A stretch of DNA of 64,000 bases from Candidatus Bathyarchaeota archaeon (GTDB lineage Archaea > Thermoproteota > Bathyarchaeia > Bathyarchaeales > Bathycorpusculaceae): the NCBI GenBank assembly GCA_003141855.1, contig PLNS01000013.1, positions 21,370 to 85,369 of the forward strand, read 5' to 3'. Each line of letters starts with the position of its first letter. Positions within the stretch are counted from its first letter, which is position 1. The notes under the pieces are model-generated. The model saw nothing but the letters and a program-made list of their open reading frames with translations, was not told where the DNA came from and searched no databases. Below, piece by piece: positions 1-9,981 of this stretch. The translations under genes and the position numbers were made by a program.

Positions 1-364
1 AGTAGGCTGAAAGTGGACCTATGATTAATCTTGCAGCTAAGCCTATTCCGAAGGCGGTAACTAACCCTGAAGCAATTATGATTCGTATTCTTCTCACAGT
101 GGCTTGTATTTGCTGTTCTCTCGGTGACAGCATTGGAAATCCTGTTTTATGGATAATATAACGTACAGCCAAAACGGCAGCGACATAAATAATTATCCAA
201 AGGGCACCAAAGAAAGCGGTAGCTTGAAGCACCAAATAGAAAATTGGAATAATTAATGCGGCCAAAAATACTGCCATGAATACAATTATTGTTCGGCTTA
301 CTAGAAGAGGTTCTTTGGGAATCCAACCTCTAATGCGATTCTCCAAGTTCTTTCTTGTGTTCAT
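1..364 (-). CDS. Membrane protein with N-terminal RIRGW-motif, runs off the window edge (not in ORF track)
   Basis: Hand translation from ATG at 364 gives MNTRKNLENRIRGWIPKEPLLVSRTIIVFMAVFLAALIIP..., open to base 1. GGAGGA RBS upstream; several hydrophobic segments. Confidence 0.85.
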   Translation of the reverse strand, partial: MNTRKNLENRIRGWIPKEPLLVSRTIIVFMAVFLAALIIPIFYLVLQATAFFGALWIIIYVAAVLAVRYIIHKTGFPMLSPREQQIQATVRRIRIIIASGLVTAFGIGLAARLIIGPLSAY

Positions 365-387
365 TTCTCATGTATCCTCCATACTTT

Positions 388-909
388 TCATGGGAAAAGG
401 GGAAACTGATAATCCCTCTTCTTACCTACCCAATCACCTATGCAGGCTCCAACTGCAATAAAAGCGAAGAATAGTGACAATGAGTAGTGTATTGGAAGAG
501 GCTGACCCAATATTCCCACCACTAAACCGGAAAGAATGAACCCGCTCGCTAAGCCGAAGCATATCATAAAGGTTGCTCTACTCCTATATTTCTTGTAAAA
601 TAATGAGTTTAATGTGGAGTGATAATCGGGTTGTCTCTTGTAATCGCTTCGGGCACGAGTAAGATAAATAACCACACCCGTCATCGCTATGAACACAACC
701 GTCAGCGCAACAGTGCGATTTACAAGACTCTCCGCTAGAAAGGGTATGTAGAATAGAATAACCATGGCTGCTATGAACGCTAAAATTGCAAAAACGACTG
801 TATACCGAAAAACCTTGTAAGCCCTAGTCGATGTCTCAAACGCTTTTACTCTGCTTGGTTCTTGAGGAAACCACCCTCGAATACGCCTTTCCAATTTTTT
901 TAGTCCCAT
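388..909 (-). CDS. Multi-pass membrane protein, RIRGW-motif family
   Basis: MGLKKLERRIRGWFPQEP start (ATG 909 preferred over the ORF-track extension, which overlaps the upstream gene); about 4 TM segments. Confidence 0.85.
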   Translation of the reverse strand: MGLKKLERRIRGWFPQEPSRVKAFETSTRAYKVFRYTVVFAILAFIAAMVILFYIPFLAESLVNRTVALTVVFIAMTGVVIYLTRARSDYKRQPDYHSTLNSLFYKKYRSRATFMICFGLASGFILSGLVVGILGQPLPIHYSLSLFFAFIAVGACIGDWVGKKRDYQFPLFP

Positions 910-917
910 ATTTCCCT

Positions 918-1406
918 TCAACTCCTCCGTAAAGAGAACCAGCCTATGAGTTTCTTGGAGAGTTCTTTTTTGCCCCAAACATAAGCTATTACAGCAAACA
1001 GTAGCGGCACATGAACTAGTGCCAGCGTCAAGAGTGATAGGGCTCTCGTAAGAAAGCTGGAAGGAACAGAAAAAACATACAGATTAACAAGAACGCCTCC
1101 CAAACTGATAACCGTAAGTATTAGGCCCATCACAAGCTTCATATTCAACTCTTTGCCACGTGACACCAAAATATCCAGTGCCAAAGAGACGCCAAGTATA
1201 CACGAGATCCAAAGGAAAGGAGCGCCTGTAGCGTTGCCCTCTAGAAAATAGCTAATGGAGATGAGCATGAAGAGGGAGCAAAACAGTAACCCGCCTTTTG
1301 GAAGTTTGGTTTTTATGACTATGTTTTTTGCTGGGAAACTTGATAGATTGGGGTCTGTCGGGAACCAGCCTCGAATGCGCTGTTCAATTGATATCTTGTG
1401 CTTCAT
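918..1406 (-). CDS. Multi-pass membrane protein, RIRGW-motif family
   Basis: MKHKISIEQRIRGWFPTDP; about 4 hydrophobic segments. Confidence 0.85.
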   Translation of the reverse strand: MKHKISIEQRIRGWFPTDPNLSSFPAKNIVIKTKLPKGGLLFCSLFMLISISYFLEGNATGAPFLWISCILGVSLALDILVSRGKELNMKLVMGLILTVISLGGVLVNLYVFSVPSSFLTRALSLLTLALVHVPLLFAVIAYVWGKKELSKKLIGWFSLRRS

Positions 1407-1410
1407 GTTC

Positions 1411-1974
1411 TCAACTCTCCGATTCTGAGACCGTTTGTAATTCTATAACAGCGCTTGTACCCGCGAGGGGTATCTCGGAGCCATCTAGATAGAGTCTTGG
1501 TTTTGGCAACTCAATAGATGGGATGTCATTACCGATGACTTTAAGCAGATACGTGAATTGATCTCCCCCTCCAGAGCCGTTGTATTGGAGGGTATTGTTT
1601 CCGCTAACGAGCTCGAAGTTGTTTTGGGGAAAAGAGTCGATGATGTTCACTTGTCGTTGGAACTCTGGAAATACATGACCGTGCCAATACACGCGAGTTT
1701 TCACTTCGACAATGTCGCCGACGTTTGCGGTGGTACAATTCAAAGACTTGTCAAAATAGCTAGCTGTAACGTCAGCTTGCGGGTTACTGTAGTTTATGTA
1801 AATCTGTATGCCTCTGTAGGCTAAAAAGGACAAGGCAACCATGGCTACTAGGGTGAGAGCAATCCAGGCGGGTTTTTTCCAGCGAGGCTTTAAGGGTTTA
1901 TTTGCGTATGCTGCAAAAGGTTCTTTTGGAAGCCAACCCCTGATACGATTCTGTAAGTGATTCTTTGAATCCAT
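1411..1974 (-). CDS. Single-TM protein, RIRGW-motif family, with extracellular beta-rich (Ig/BatD-like) domain
   Basis: MDSKNHLQNRIRGWLPKEP, one TM, then a beta-strand-rich domain. Confidence 0.8.
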   Translation of the reverse strand: MDSKNHLQNRIRGWLPKEPFAAYANKPLKPRWKKPAWIALTLVAMVALSFLAYRGIQIYINYSNPQADVTASYFDKSLNCTTANVGDIVEVKTRVYWHGHVFPEFQRQVNIIDSFPQNNFELVSGNNTLQYNGSGGGDQFTYLLKVIGNDIPSIELPKPRLYLDGSEIPLAGTSAVIELQTVSESES

Positions 1975-1975
1975 C

Positions 1976-2515
1976 TTACATACCGCCATCAGGACGTGTT
2001 TGCTTCTTGTAATATCTGACCAGTAAAGTGTTAACTAAAATAACCGATAGCGAAAGAATAATCCACAAGCCGAGGGTTACCTCACTGCTCTTGATATTTG
2101 GGTCAATCAAGAAATACGTCCCTAAGAAAATGCTAAACATTATTGTGTTAGCCACGCCGATTATTTTGGACGCCTTTCTTTCCCCTTCCATCATGGATCT
2201 GTTTTTCATTTCACTAGGTCTTGAGATTTGGTTACGCGGCTTCCAAAGCAAGACACTCAAAACAGCACCGGCAAGAGCTGCGACAGCTCCGGCGGCGTAA
2301 GGTGCATTAGACTCTAAACCTAAAACTTGGAGTACGGTGAGCGCGCTGACCACAACAGCAAAAATAGCGATACCGAACACTGCCAGCCCAGTCTTGGTCG
2401 GCTTTTTGGTCTTCTGGTTCACCTCGACCATTTCGGTTTTTTGGGTACTTGGCAAATACGGCTCTTTTGGTAACCAGCCCCTAATACGAGACCCTAAACT
2501 TTTCTTTACATTCAT
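1976..2515 (-). CDS. Multi-pass membrane protein, RIRGW-motif family
   Basis: MNVKKSLGSRIRGWLPKEP; about 4 TM; ATGA overlap with the upstream HTH gene. Confidence 0.85.
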   Translation of the reverse strand: MNVKKSLGSRIRGWLPKEPYLPSTQKTEMVEVNQKTKKPTKTGLAVFGIAIFAVVVSALTVLQVLGLESNAPYAAGAVAALAGAVLSVLLWKPRNQISRPSEMKNRSMMEGERKASKIIGVANTIMFSIFLGTYFLIDPNIKSSEVTLGLWIILSLSVILVNTLLVRYYKKQTRPDGGM

Positions 2516-3003
2516 GTTTTCAACTCCGGGATAAGCGTACAGAAAAGTATATGCGCCAATTTGGCTGGGTGCATTTTCTCCGCGTCTTTGATCTCTATGC
2601 CTCTTTCTTTGGCTATTTCAAGCAGGTATGTTCGGGTTTGTTTTAGGAATTCTTCGTTTGTAATTTCTTCTGGTTGGTCGTGCCAGTACCAGACTTTTAT
2701 TCCATAATTTGTGCTGTAGGTGAGAATTGCTTTGCGTTTTAAGGCTGGATGATAACCTAAAAGCATACCTTCTTTGGGGTATAGTTTTGTGATTTGGAGG
2801 TCGTTTGCTTGCGCAACATCTAAAAGGGTTGTGGATAGTCTGGCTTCTGCGGCTAGTTTGGTTTGGTTAATGAACTGTCTTGTGGTGTTGAGTTTTTCAG
2901 CTATCGTTGCGGCGGATAAGCCTTTGCTTATCATTGACCAAATGGTCTTTTGTTTTTGACTAAGTGGAGACGCCAAGGTGCAAGTTGATCTCATAACCGT
3001 CAC
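2512..3003 (-). CDS. HTH transcriptional regulator (LuxR/sigma70-region-4-like HTH plus unknown C-terminal domain)
   Basis: LSQKQKTIWSMISKGLSAATIAEKLNTTRQFINQ fits an HTH pattern; first gene of the operon. Confidence 0.7.
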   Translation of the reverse strand: MTVMRSTCTLASPLSQKQKTIWSMISKGLSAATIAEKLNTTRQFINQTKLAAEARLSTTLLDVAQANDLQITKLYPKEGMLLGYHPALKRKAILTYSTNYGIKVWYWHDQPEEITNEEFLKQTRTYLLEIAKERGIEIKDAEKMHPAKLAHILFCTLIPELKT

Positions 3004-3006
3004 TGC

Positions 3007-3026
3007 GTAAATAGTATATTATTTAC
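3007..3026. promoter_or_regulatory. Palindrome GTAAATA-N6-TATTTAC between TATA box and start of the HTH gene (putative autoregulatory operator)
   Basis: Perfect 7-bp inverted repeat; minus-strand TTTAAATA at 3030-3037. Confidence 0.55.
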
Positions 3027-3135
3027 AATTATTTAAAAATATTGGTCGTTGTTAGAATACCAGCAACGGCATTAAGCCGTATGTTGAGTCTATGAATTTG
3101 CTGTTTTTAAATTCAGAGAATGGGAAATTAGAGCG

Positions 3136-4197: not shown

Positions 4198-5550
4198 CTA
4201 AGGAGGCGCGGTTTCGGTTGGTTCGAATGCGAGAAGAAGGGCGTAGCTTGTAATGTCTTTTCCGTCGTATCGGATTTGTATTTCAAATGTTCCTGTTGAG
4301 TTGCTACTGACTTTTGTAACGGTGAAACCTGGCTGTGGCGAGTCTGCGGTAAGAATTGGTCCGACTTTTTGGTTTGTAGAATTGTAAACGTTTGCTGTTA
4401 TACTGAAATAGTAATCTTTGGAGTAGTCGTTTCTAATTGTTCCATTTATGATAACGCACGCATCGCCATTGTTAATAGAATAAGAGCCTGTGGCGCCTGA
4501 GCGGGTGAAGCTTTGGTTATAATTTCCATAATAAAGTTGTGAATCAATCAAATAAGCCATAGTTTCAGCGCCCCCTTGATAATCACTTGGAAAGTGCAGA
4601 TAGACACCACTTTCTGATTGAGTGGAAGAAGACACTGGTTGATTGCTAACTAAATCACCACTTGCATAACTGTACGCTGGGAACGCTAACAATGAAACCG
4701 GAATAACGCAAGTTTCATTGGGTTGCAATGCATCATTAAGCAAAGCCGATGCCAAGTAACTTTGCCCATCCACGGAGGGCCCTCCAGAGAACATAGCGGT
4801 TTTAACTGGAAAGGTGTTGTTGTTGCATACTGTTACGTTGAAGTAGTTTTCGCCAATTTGGTTTAACGTCTTAGCCCAATTGTAAGAATTTGGCTCCAAT
4901 GGAAAATATCTGGAAGGATTACTTTTCTGAAAAAAATTGGGTTGGTCGTTAACGTATTCATTGCGGTTTTTGGCACTATTGAAGTGTTCATGCCAAGTAT
5001 CATTGTCATGCTGAATTGAGCTGTAGACTAAGATTTGCAGGTAAGCTTTTCTTTGTAAAATGGTGAAAGATTGACCGTTAATTACGTCGCCTAAGTTGTT
5101 CTGTGAAAGGTAGAGCTTAACTGTATGCTGACTAAATAGCGTTATTTCTGGGTATGCAAAAGTAAACTGAATACTTCTGGTTTGGTTGGGTTCAATCGTT
5201 ATCTCAGTGAAGTTGTCTGCAAAATCAAATGGCATGGTTTGGTTGCGGGGATCATGAACATAAATCATTCTCGTTGAATGTAAATTCGTTACCGCTACAG
5301 GTGAGTCATCAACTATGGCGGTTAATTGTAAATTATCAAAATTTTTGTTTGACGGGTTTACAAGGGTAATGTTGCCGCCGCTAATGTTATCGCCATATAT
5401 GTCAGGGCTGAAACTCGCTATAAACAGAGCATTCTTGTTGGAACCGTTAGCATTTACGTTTTGAACTGACACATACGCGAATGCGCTTGAAACAACAATC
5501 ACTATGGCGATTAAAGCTATAACTGTTAGGGATATTTTATTTAACTTAAT
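4198..5550 (-). CDS. N-terminally anchored extracellular multi-domain protein (C-terminal FxLYD-like Ig domain); probable ATT start
   Basis: Signal-anchor (I)KLNKISLTVIALIAIVIVV begins at ATT 5550, 8 nt after GGAGAG. The ORF-track start at 5631 lies inside the upstream gene. Confidence 0.65.
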   Translation of the reverse strand: MKLNKISLTVIALIAIVIVVSSAFAYVSVQNVNANGSNKNALFIASFSPDIYGDNISGGNITLVNPSNKNFDNLQLTAIVDDSPVAVTNLHSTRMIYVHDPRNQTMPFDFADNFTEITIEPNQTRSIQFTFAYPEITLFSQHTVKLYLSQNNLGDVINGQSFTILQRKAYLQILVYSSIQHDNDTWHEHFNSAKNRNEYVNDQPNFFQKSNPSRYFPLEPNSYNWAKTLNQIGENYFNVTVCNNNTFPVKTAMFSGGPSVDGQSYLASALLNDALQPNETCVIPVSLLAFPAYSYASGDLVSNQPVSSSTQSESGVYLHFPSDYQGGAETMAYLIDSQLYYGNYNQSFTRSGATGSYSINNGDACVIINGTIRNDYSKDYYFSITANVYNSTNQKVGPILTADSPQPGFTVTKVSSNSTGTFEIQIRYDGKDITSYALLLAFEPTETAPP

Positions 5551-6224
5551 TTTCTTCGCTCTCCAATCTCGGAAAATCGTGTTTTTTTCCTGAGGTACAA
5601 ACCAGCTCCCAACAGTGAAACTGCTATGCAAGCTATAATTATGAAAGGTAATGGATTTTCTAGCGGTTGGAAACTATCAGTGTTTGTTGTAGGCTGAGCT
5701 GTTCCAGTCGGATCCATAGGGTTAGTTGTGGCTGCGGTGTGGTTCATGGAATCCGTAAGCTGAGGCTGAGGCGGCACATAGTCATAGTCCACCGTAAACT
5801 CTCTTGTTCGGGACATTTCTTTACCGTCAGCAGCGTGCGAGTACACGATAAGCGTATGATTACCTTCTTCTACATTGTCCAAAGAGGCTTCTGTACTGAA
5901 AGCATTACCATGTGCAAAAACGCCTTTTGTAGTGGTCCAATAATAAAGTCCATCCTCCCTTGTTAAATTGGTAAGTGTAACGTTGGCTCCTCCGTCCAAA
6001 CTATAGCGGATGAAAGTGATGTCGGCTTCGTTTGTTAAGACGTTAACGCGAACCTGAAGTGGAACAGATGCGGTTGAATGAACATCGGGAGCAGGGATAG
6101 GAGAAAAGATTTCGATGGATGGCGGCGGATAATAATTTGCGCTCACCAAATTAACTTGTGATAGTGTTGGCACTGAAATTAGTAGCGCTAAAAGGGCTAT
6201 TACCGCCAATTTTGTCCTTTTCAT
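5541..6224 (-). CDS. Secreted Ig-like domain protein with C-terminal TM anchor
   Basis: Signal peptide, Big-like motif (YSLDGGAN...EGNHTLIVY), T/P linker, TM-RKK. Confidence 0.75.
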   Translation of the reverse strand: MKRTKLAVIALLALLISVPTLSQVNLVSANYYPPPSIEIFSPIPAPDVHSTASVPLQVRVNVLTNEADITFIRYSLDGGANVTLTNLTREDGLYYWTTTKGVFAHGNAFSTEASLDNVEEGNHTLIVYSHAADGKEMSRTREFTVDYDYVPPQPQLTDSMNHTAATTNPMDPTGTAQPTTNTDSFQPLENPLPFIIIACIAVSLLGAGLYLRKKTRFSEIGERRKLS

Positions 6225-9090: not shown

Positions 9091-9981
9091 ATGAACTATA
9101 AAATCTTAACAGCAGTAATAACTTTATGCGCAATAACTCTACTTTCAACCTATCCCTTTTTGGTAAGAGGAGACGCAACTAACCAATTTACAGCTATTTC
9201 AACGCCGATGGCGTTTACGCCGGCAACACAATTCCCGATACCAACCGCAAACGGCGCTGTGAGCTTTGCACAGACAGGGTACTATGAAAACGCCGCTCTA
9301 GTTAATGATGCCTGGGTTTTCACTCATCTGCAACTTGACCCGCAACAAGCCGGTCTACTCTCAGACAGCTCAACAACTGCAAACCTAAACATAACAACCC
9401 AAGACAGCAACATCACCCTAACCAGCTTCGAACGCCTCCTAACTCCCGATTCATACGACCAACGGAATACTGGTTCATGGTTAACTGCAGGATGGCTAAA
9501 CTATACCGTATCCGGAGTTGGAAGACAGATAATCAAGATACAGTTCAATCTGGCAAATTGGACAGTGCCTTCTCAAGATGACATCAACGGAACATACACT
9601 TGGCCCATGGGTGTTCAAGTTTACATTGATGGCAAAGAAGCACAGTATAACAATAGCTGGACAACAATCGATAACGATAACGGAATAATTCCATATGGCA
9701 CAGGACTCATAGTTAATGGAGCCACTTCAAACGTTAGCATAAAATATGCGTGGGCGCCAGTGCCAGCACCTGCAAATCAGTCACCAACAGATTCCAGTTT
9801 ACCGACCACTAAAGCTTCAATCGCACCCGTCTGGTTACATTACTTAATGCTTGTTGCTGTGGCAAGTGCTGTCATAGTTTCAGTTGCCTTATTCACAAAC
9901 AGACACCGCTTGGAATCCATCATAAACAAAAGAATAAAGCGGCGATTTGAGAATAGAGGTGAAAAACGATTAAGAAAATAA
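9091..9981 (+). CDS. Secreted/surface protein with C-terminal TM anchor
   Basis: Signal peptide, beta-rich body, TM plus basic tail. Confidence 0.75.
   Translation: MNYKILTAVITLCAITLLSTYPFLVRGDATNQFTAISTPMAFTPATQFPIPTANGAVSFAQTGYYENAALVNDAWVFTHLQLDPQQAGLLSDSSTTANLNITTQDSNITLTSFERLLTPDSYDQRNTGSWLTAGWLNYTVSGVGRQIIKIQFNLANWTVPSQDDINGTYTWPMGVQVYIDGKEAQYNNSWTTIDNDNGIIPYGTGLIVNGATSNVSIKYAWAPVPAPANQSPTDSSLPTTKASIAPVWLHYLMLVAVASAVIVSVALFTNRHRLESIINKRIKRRFENRGEKRLRK

Follow-up and report, generated by a model that had tools for sequence, protein, structure and literature searches.

The window analysed here, that is, the whole stretch of 64,000 nucleotides at C6:21370-85369 (contig PLNS01000013.1) in a 2.39 Mb, 30-contig genome of a Candidatus Bathyarchaeota archaeon (GCA_003141855.1), opens with a minus-strand operon that encodes a small helix-turn-helix (HTH) regulator and a tightly packed array of membrane proteins that begin with the same short peptide, hereafter called the tag. 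According to our analysis, genes with this tag are found almost exclusively behind the HTH gene, and different types of tag accompany different types of regulator. We posit that the tag probably serves as the cognate peptide by which these proteins dock in the cytoplasm on the head domain of the regulator, and that the operon regulates itself.

The regulator gene (2512..2994, minus strand, as are all genes of the operon) encodes 160 aa and belongs to a cysteine-less group of homologs that we term clade A. Its start is most likely the ATG at 2994 and not the GTG at 3003, because the resulting 160 aa is the length of the database homologs. An ATGA overlap joins its stop codon to the start of the first tagged gene (1976..2515), which encodes a protein of 179 aa (MNVKKSLGSRIRGWLPKEP) with four transmembrane (TM) segments and the N-terminus inside. 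It is followed by a protein of 187 aa with one TM segment and a 131-aa extracytoplasmic domain (1411..1974; MDSKNHLQNRIRGWLPKEP), and by three proteins with four TM segments each, of 162 aa (918..1406; MKHKISIEQRIRGWFPTDP), 173 aa (388..909; MGLKKLERRIRGWFPQEP) and, for the gene that runs off the window start (1..364), 154 aa in full (MNTRKNLENRIRGWIPKEP). A sixth tagged gene lies just beyond the window at C6:20934-21272 (positions 9564-9902 of the extracted locus L001), encoding 112 aa with two TM segments and the tag NRVRGWIPKEP. The gaps along the tagged array are only 1-23 nt. The initial annotation, made from the window alone, had already placed the five starts correctly at 2515, 1974, 1406, 909 and 364 and had recognized both the ATGA overlap and the truncated fifth gene.

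The products of the first five tagged genes begin with SRIRGWLPKEP, NRIRGWLPKEP, QRIRGWFPTDP, RRIRGWFPQEP and NRIRGWIPKEP, and all six follow the pattern M-x(9-10)-R-[IV]-R-G-W-[LFI]-P-x-[ED]-P. The tag thus spans about 19 residues, in which a basic amphipathic segment leads into R-G-W-[LFI]-P-x-[ED]-P. Its ten core codons differ synonymously among the six genes (CGT/CGC, ATT/ATC, AGG/CGA/AGA, GGC/GGT/GGG, four proline codons and GAA/GAG), and it is therefore the peptide that is conserved and not the DNA. Hydropathy analysis combined with the positive-inside rule gave lysine plus arginine counts of 5-10 for the N-terminal tails, 0-1 for the outward loops and 3-8 for the inward loops and C-terminal tails. 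In this predicted topology, the tag faces the cytoplasm.

Beyond the tag, the six protein bodies had no BLASTP match to one another (all E > 0.05), in keeping with the complete divergence after the motif that had been described for them. That description holds less well at the level of architecture, as four of the six have a four-TM plan and its loop pattern in common and may be paralogs that diverged to an extreme degree. The one-TM and the two-TM protein are of clearly different build. Searches of the tagged proteins against Pfam, NCBIfam and the PDB returned only sub-threshold noise from hydrophobic segments, and the immunoglobulin (Ig)-like label that had been given to the extracytoplasmic part of the second protein was not confirmed by any Pfam match.

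A six-frame scan of the whole genome detected open reading frames (ORFs) with an N-terminal GW[FLI]Px[ED/N]P in two places only, the window array and an array on contig C11. The latter begins directly behind an HTH paralog that is 70% identical to the window regulator and comprises six or seven tagged genes, three of which are paralogous to one another. One tagged ORF of the C11 array (C11:14816-15109; L002 5817-6110, minus strand; ...NTLEKLRGWFPKEPIQNN...) extends for 97 codons to its stop, and its open frame lacks a start codon (ATG, GTG or TTG) ahead of the tag; either translation begins at a non-canonical codon or the gene is in decay. A 37-codon fragment with RGWFPQEP was also seen at L002 2317.

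In order to compare genomes, the back-translated tag pattern was searched in 61 related genomes, with the reversed pattern as control. The pattern yielded 48 strict matches in 17 genomes, against one match for the control. All but two of them (46/48) share the strand of a clade-A HTH gene and are found no more than 4 kb downstream of it, the other two being located on short contigs, and the 39 genomes without a clade-A HTH gene contained no match at all. Together with the genome scan and the synonymous codon differences, this test excludes a chance origin of the shared tag. Co-location with HTH homologs was the test that the initial annotation had proposed for its own docking hypothesis, and the motif genes are clearly co-located. 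Neither a random placement of motif genes nor the behaviour of a generic membrane-targeting signal was seen, given that two tag types occur in one genome, each beside its own type of HTH gene (see below).

Forty-one loci were inspected with up to 10 kb of flanking sequence. Tagged ORFs were found almost exclusively downstream of the HTH gene and on its strand, in arrays of 1-12. The first tagged gene lies in the -1 frame with a 4-nt (ATGA) overlap, an arrangement kept in almost all orthologous loci. No in-frame fusion of the regulator with its first partner was found in these loci, the partner being always in the -1 frame. The genes that follow the arrays vary, and the only gene common to all loci is the HTH gene itself.

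A second arrangement, which we refer to as class-2, consists of the HTH gene, in some cases a surface protein, an ATP-binding cassette (ABC) ATPase, an ABC-2 permease, an anchored beta-rich protein and finally a two-TM protein that starts with ...TQGWLPQDPYIP and carries a GOLD/emp24-like outer domain. The tagged gene of these operons comes last, 2.4-3.5 kb from the HTH gene. Operons of this type, headed by the same regulator and operator, were seen in a subclade, at about 10.0-14.6 kb of L034, L040, L042, L059 and other loci. At L042, the ABC cassette and the terminal tagged gene are duplicated in tandem.

Highly variable bodies, array lengths of 1-12 and the frequent association with ABC exporters are also what one might expect of fast-evolving conflict or defence cassettes that encode variable membrane effectors or immunity proteins, and islands of variable membrane proteins have been described in archaea (Makarova et al., 2014; PMC4158269). 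The similarity of the 5' ends would then be a by-product of gene conversion or cassette recombination. We consider this very unlikely. The tag DNA is not homogenized, with nearly every codon differing synonymously between neighbours, which suggests that there are no 5' recombination tracts, and no close relatives were found on viral contigs. Such an explanation moreover concerns the biological role of the arrays and would be compatible with docking of the tag.

A specific relationship between regulator and tag is also indicated by a sister form of the system. Paralogs that are 33-39% identical to the window regulator carry an invariant C-x2-C-x5-C at the junction between strand 4 and the following helix of the head domain, and this Cys-triad form is the majority regulator type in the class. 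The next gene, again with a 4-nt overlap, encodes a membrane protein that differs widely in size (110-870 aa) and architecture from locus to locus and has an N-terminus of the form M-x-x-R-K-R-[FL]-x-x-[FLW]-R-x-W-C-[PRQ]-x-P. Such tags include RDFRDWCPQPP, LWNWCRRP and LRYMGWCPGVES, and some partners contain a literal MGWCPG. We compared the tag types in 98 non-redundant regulator-partner pairs, 49 with Cys-triad and 49 with cysteine-less regulators. A tag of the x-C-[PRQ] type (WCPQPP, WCRRP, MGWCPG) follows 47 of the 49 Cys-triad regulators, its cysteine being invariant in all 47 tagged partners. Among the cysteine-less regulators, 32 of 49 are directly followed by a gene with the GW[LFIVM]P tag, and about ten more head ABC operons, most of which end in the TQGWLPQDPYIP tagged gene. 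No Cys tag was found behind a cysteine-less regulator, apart from false matches to signal peptides and the N-L-C-G-L-L-P of the partner of a distant paralog, P0132.

When the tags are aligned on their tryptophan, the cysteine of the older clade falls on the L/F/I position of the window tag; on the regulator side, the window protein has I, E and T where the sister form has its three head cysteines. This pattern indicates that the window's clade derives from an older, more widespread Cys-triad/W-C-P form and that the cysteines were lost on both sides. Both tag types are present in the window genome, in which a third HTH paralog, of the Cys-triad type, was located at C8:232367-233373 (in part masked as N). 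Behind it, after 12 nt, comes a 198-aa, two-TM protein that starts with MSILRKLRRWCPQPQ. Loci L056 and L073 each have a pair of the Cys type next to one of the window type.

Two tag consensuses maintained by strong purifying selection within one cell, each at the locus of its own regulator type, and a regulator that is the sole constant gene fit a cognate contact between regulator and tag. They are not what a shared targeting or processing machine would predict, namely a single consensus and scattered genes. We nevertheless weighed the explanation that a different component of the cell recognizes the tag (a dedicated insertase, a protease, a lipid- or metal-modifying enzyme, or quality control), with the HTH protein acting as a local autoregulator only and the types correlating through linkage and co-duplication. 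It would account for the position of the tag at the N-terminus before the first TM segment, where targeting and processing signals reside, and for the class-2 operons, in which the tagged gene is the most remote from the HTH gene. The covariation of types, which amounts to roughly one phylogenetic split, is likewise compatible with it. It would leave unexplained why clade-A tags are absent from genomes without a clade-A HTH gene, and the loci have no other gene in common. Known signals do not fit the tag either. A Tat signal was rejected on the established motif definition, as the arginines are separated (R-I-R) and not twin, a class III or pilin-like signal because G-W-x-P-K-E-P is polar and 10-25 polar residues precede the first TM segment, and a lipobox because the cysteine is absent. 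Overall, we regard another machine as an unlikely reader of the tag, albeit the most serious competitor of docking.

The ATGA overlap and the very short gaps indicate translational coupling, and the proline-rich G-W-x-P-x-E-P resembles arrest-type sequences in its composition. The conserved N-terminus might accordingly be an element that acts on the nascent peptide or on translation, through coupled termination and reinitiation, ribosome pausing or the kinetics of membrane targeting, instead of a docking site on the mature protein. This appears highly improbable to us. The class-2 operons, with unrelated genes ahead of the tagged gene, retain the tag; a specific 19-residue peptide with an invariant cysteine in every tagged Cys-triad partner exceeds the needs of coupling; and the motif precedes any TM segment that would be able to relieve an arrest.

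The AlphaFold2 (AF2) model of the regulator (pLDDT 91) shows helices at residues 13-23, 28-35 and 39-63, the last being a 25-residue stem, strands between residues 67 and 103, and helices at 114-130 and 143-159. The overall plan is thus an HTH similar to sigma70 region 4, LuxR and Tfx, a long stem helix and a head domain formed by a four-stranded sheet and two helices. Comparison with known families yielded weak matches that were confined to the HTH region for GerE (PF00196; 18.4 bits, cut-off 23.5) and to HTH residues 14-47 for Tfx (TIGR00721; 18.1 bits, E 0.0019, cut-off 60.25 bits). In Foldseek, the HTH aligned locally to GerE, NarL and RcsB (probability 0.97-1.0). The best PDB match of a profile built from 34 family members was EnfR (8HNO), a solved structure of the Tfx family, over residues 4-64 comprising HTH and stem (E 1.7e-6); the whole-chain Foldseek match to EnfR was weak (probability 0.89-0.96, TM-score 0.35-0.41). 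For the head domain, Foldseek found no homologous fold in the PDB with either regulator model.

Like EnfR and the Tfx protein MTH0916, the regulator is an archaeal protein of about 150 aa with an N-terminal HTH similar to sigma region 4, a long stem helix and a C-terminal alpha+beta head. The head of EnfR has the topology beta-alpha-alpha-beta-beta (PMC10570040), unlike the four strands followed by two helices in the head modelled here. With this difference and a score far below the TIGR00721 cut-off, membership in Tfx was rejected, and sequence profiles and model both identify the regulator as a new family with a Tfx-like plan. It has more than 1,400 close homologs, none of which carries a Pfam domain. 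An exhaustive search of 1.84 billion cluster representatives returned only 104 clusters, nearly all of proteins of about 155 aa. Members occur in 115 of the 301 Bathyarchaeia genomes that were sampled, most of them with E < 1e-25, and a third regulator subfamily was seen in the same sample (profile E about 1e-30). The most remote homologs, P0199 and P0221 (metagenome contigs L127/L128 and L129), adjoin genes for an Arf-family GTPase and for Roadblock/LC7 proteins, neighbours that suggest Asgard archaea. A downstream tagged partner is absent from P0199, P0221 and P0201, which may represent a different, solo family.

The promoter of the operon offers a candidate binding site for the regulator. 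A TATA-like box (TTAAATAA; 3029..3036, minus strand) is followed by a perfect palindrome, GTAAATA-N6-TATTTAC (3007..3026, minus strand), which we take as the putative operator and which had been noted at this position in the initial annotation. It starts three bases after the TTAAATA box and ends 13 nt before the ATG at 2994. The layout TTAAATA(A/T)-NN-GTAAAYA-N6-TRTTTAC was found upstream of nearly every orthologous HTH gene (about 40 loci, ABC-type operons included); the distance from the TTAAATA(A/T) box to the palindrome is 2-3 nt at nearly all clade-A loci. The distant paralog P0132 (L087) has a different palindrome in the same place, GTCAATAG-N4-CTATTGAC. EnfR is known to bind a pseudo-palindrome in a promoter as a dimer (PMC10570040). 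Exactly two copies of the operator exist in the 2.39 Mb genome, one per clade-A HTH promoter, and the detectable target of the regulator is therefore its own operon. Its position between TATA box and start codon would be suitable for autorepression, as known from archaeal repressors.

We infer that the system works as follows. The regulator, a small DNA-binding protein of the dimer type, would bind the palindrome abutting the TATA box of its own promoter and so control transcription of itself and of the tightly packed genes downstream. Each of their products would be an inner-membrane protein whose N-terminal segment of about 19 residues faces the cytoplasm and docks on the head domain. With the regulator thus tethered or titrated at the membrane, operon expression would depend on how abundant the tagged proteins are or on the state they are in. 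That cysteines were replaced jointly in regulator and tag makes the head loop the likely site of contact. In the older form, with C-x2-C-x5-C in the head and W-C-P at the same position of the tag, the original contact probably involved the cysteines.

Several observations weigh against docking as we propose it. The covariation between regulator and tag represents essentially one evolutionary split, and since the genes are linked, descent alone could have produced it. Leucine, phenylalanine and isoleucine all occur at the position after the tryptophan (W+1) within a single array, so that one regulator would have to accept all three, and residue-level coevolution at W+1 is unusable for the same reason. 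Six of the 49 clade-A loci have no adjacent tagged gene. The cysteine-less P0132 (L087 1338-2778, a metagenome contig) is followed by a membrane M48 (HExxH) peptidase whose N-terminus, NLCGLLP, still contains a cysteine, and in P0207, the sole further cysteine-less lineage with a readable partner, the partner is free of cysteine and has no recognizable tag. Finally, the operator was found only at the operon's own promoter, with no target detected beyond the operon itself. A regulon under the control of many sensors becomes less likely on this account, and the idea of the initial annotation that many different membrane sensors feed one transcription factor is doubtful, the detectable output being the operon.

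The joint loss of the cysteines also suggests a metal or redox centre at the ancestral contact. A more specific version, which we put forward tentatively as a possibility, is that the ancestral system was held together by a metal centre shared between the two proteins, with the C-x2-C-x5-C of the head providing three ligands and the cysteine of the partner's W-C-P the fourth. A histidine precedes the Cys triad in only about 60% of the members, and a fourth ligand within the same protein is therefore not conserved. This, the invariance of the tag cysteine and its alignment with the L/F/I of the cysteine-free tag are the reasons for placing the site between the proteins. A shared Zn or Fe-S site could tether the regulator to the membrane protein and might sense redox state, metal or oxygen. 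In the window's clade, a derived form, all four cysteines would have been exchanged together and the metal lost. The spacing of C-x2-C-x5-C is that of the WhiB-like [4Fe-4S] proteins, and NsrR provides a precedent for three cysteines plus a ligand from another chain.

The known regulatory systems that come closest include extracytoplasmic function (ECF) sigma factors and their membrane anti-sigma factors, zinc-binding ZAS proteins among them. There, too, a gene with similarity to sigma70 region 4 lies upstream of, and is translationally coupled to, the gene of a membrane protein. The cytoplasmic N-terminus of the partner is conserved while its outer part varies, the operon is autoregulated, and Cys/His motifs occur at what is presumed to be the interface, as in the older clade described here. 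The conserved segment of the partner, however, measures about 19 residues here as opposed to a helical anti-sigma domain of about 50-90 residues, the cysteines are mainly in the DNA-binding protein and not in the partner, and one regulator gene can be accompanied by up to 12 differently built partners. No protein of the system matched Sigma70_r2 or an anti-sigma family, which reduces the comparison with ECF systems drawn in the initial annotation to an analogy. To our knowledge, archaea do not use sigma factors, nor do we know of any report of a tagged membrane partner for Tfx or EnfR.

The principle of a soluble regulator that is set by the cytoplasmic part of a membrane protein, as in Mlc-PtsG, MalT-MalK and BlaI/BlaR1, would apply here as well. 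Some relatives of the regulator have an ABC transporter operon or a membrane-bound M48 peptidase as their partner, and the arrangement of P0132 with its peptidase resembles BlaI/BlaR1. The components are not homologous, though, and a portable short tag would bind here in place of a folded domain.

Our literature search found no paper that describes this regulator-tag system. The sole published trace that we found is one line in a table of Makarova et al. (PMC4158269), where arCOG06827/DUF1673 is listed as 'Methanosarcina expansion, MGWCP motif'. A resemblance to the GWCP N-terminus of these Methanosarcina proteins had been proposed for the window tag, and it stands as far as the motif is concerned. 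DUF1673 is an expanded set of membrane proteins with a short N-terminal GWCP motif, and the bathyarchaeial partners of the sister clade begin with ...[RK]Y[ML]GWCPG, in some cases containing MGWCPG itself. Compared with MGWCP, the window tag RGW[LFI]P is a derivative in which the cysteine is replaced by leucine, phenylalanine or isoleucine. The resemblance does not extend to family membership, which we rejected: the PF07895 (DUF1673) hidden Markov model (HMM) matched nothing in four tests, namely among the window proteins, in the whole genome, among the sister-clade partners and among 50-aa N-terminal fragments. The relation is thus limited to the tag. DUF1673 was also not found in the 151 genomes of the phylum to which locus L041 (titled 'Methanocella sp.') belongs.

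Further genes surround the operon on contig C6. Downstream of the sixth tagged gene and outside the window, a 151-nt gap precedes an ABC ATPase (L001 8615-9412, minus strand), after which follow a permease-like protein of 564 aa (L001 6924-8618, minus strand) and a DUF996 membrane protein with a C-terminal zinc ribbon (L001 6068-6820, minus strand). A partner that bears a zinc ribbon also occurs behind a Cys-type regulator at L121. Upstream, about 1.2 kb from the HTH promoter, the window encodes a 477-aa single-pass surface protein (4198-5631, minus strand) that starts with MHSSFTVGSWFVPQEKN, followed by a basic stretch and a TM segment. Its 'GSWFVPQE' has the appearance of a degenerate RGWFPQEP tag that lies away from the array.

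In sediments, soils and guts, few uncultured archaea are as abundant as the Bathyarchaeia, and the way in which they sense their surroundings is almost uncharted. The regulator module occurs in roughly a third of the sampled genomes of the class, often in several copies, and if docking is the function of the tag, it would constitute a major pathway, specific to this lineage, that connects the membrane with transcription. Any membrane protein would then become a client of one small regulator by carrying a short, portable tag at its N-terminus, a principle for which we know of no description in prokaryotes. The cysteine-bearing sister form may represent a new metal or redox switch between proteins. 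It further provides a lead on the long-unexplained MGWCP/DUF1673 expansion in the genetically tractable Methanosarcina, and the shared metal site, if true, would offer the first functional hypothesis for the MGWCP motif of these proteins.

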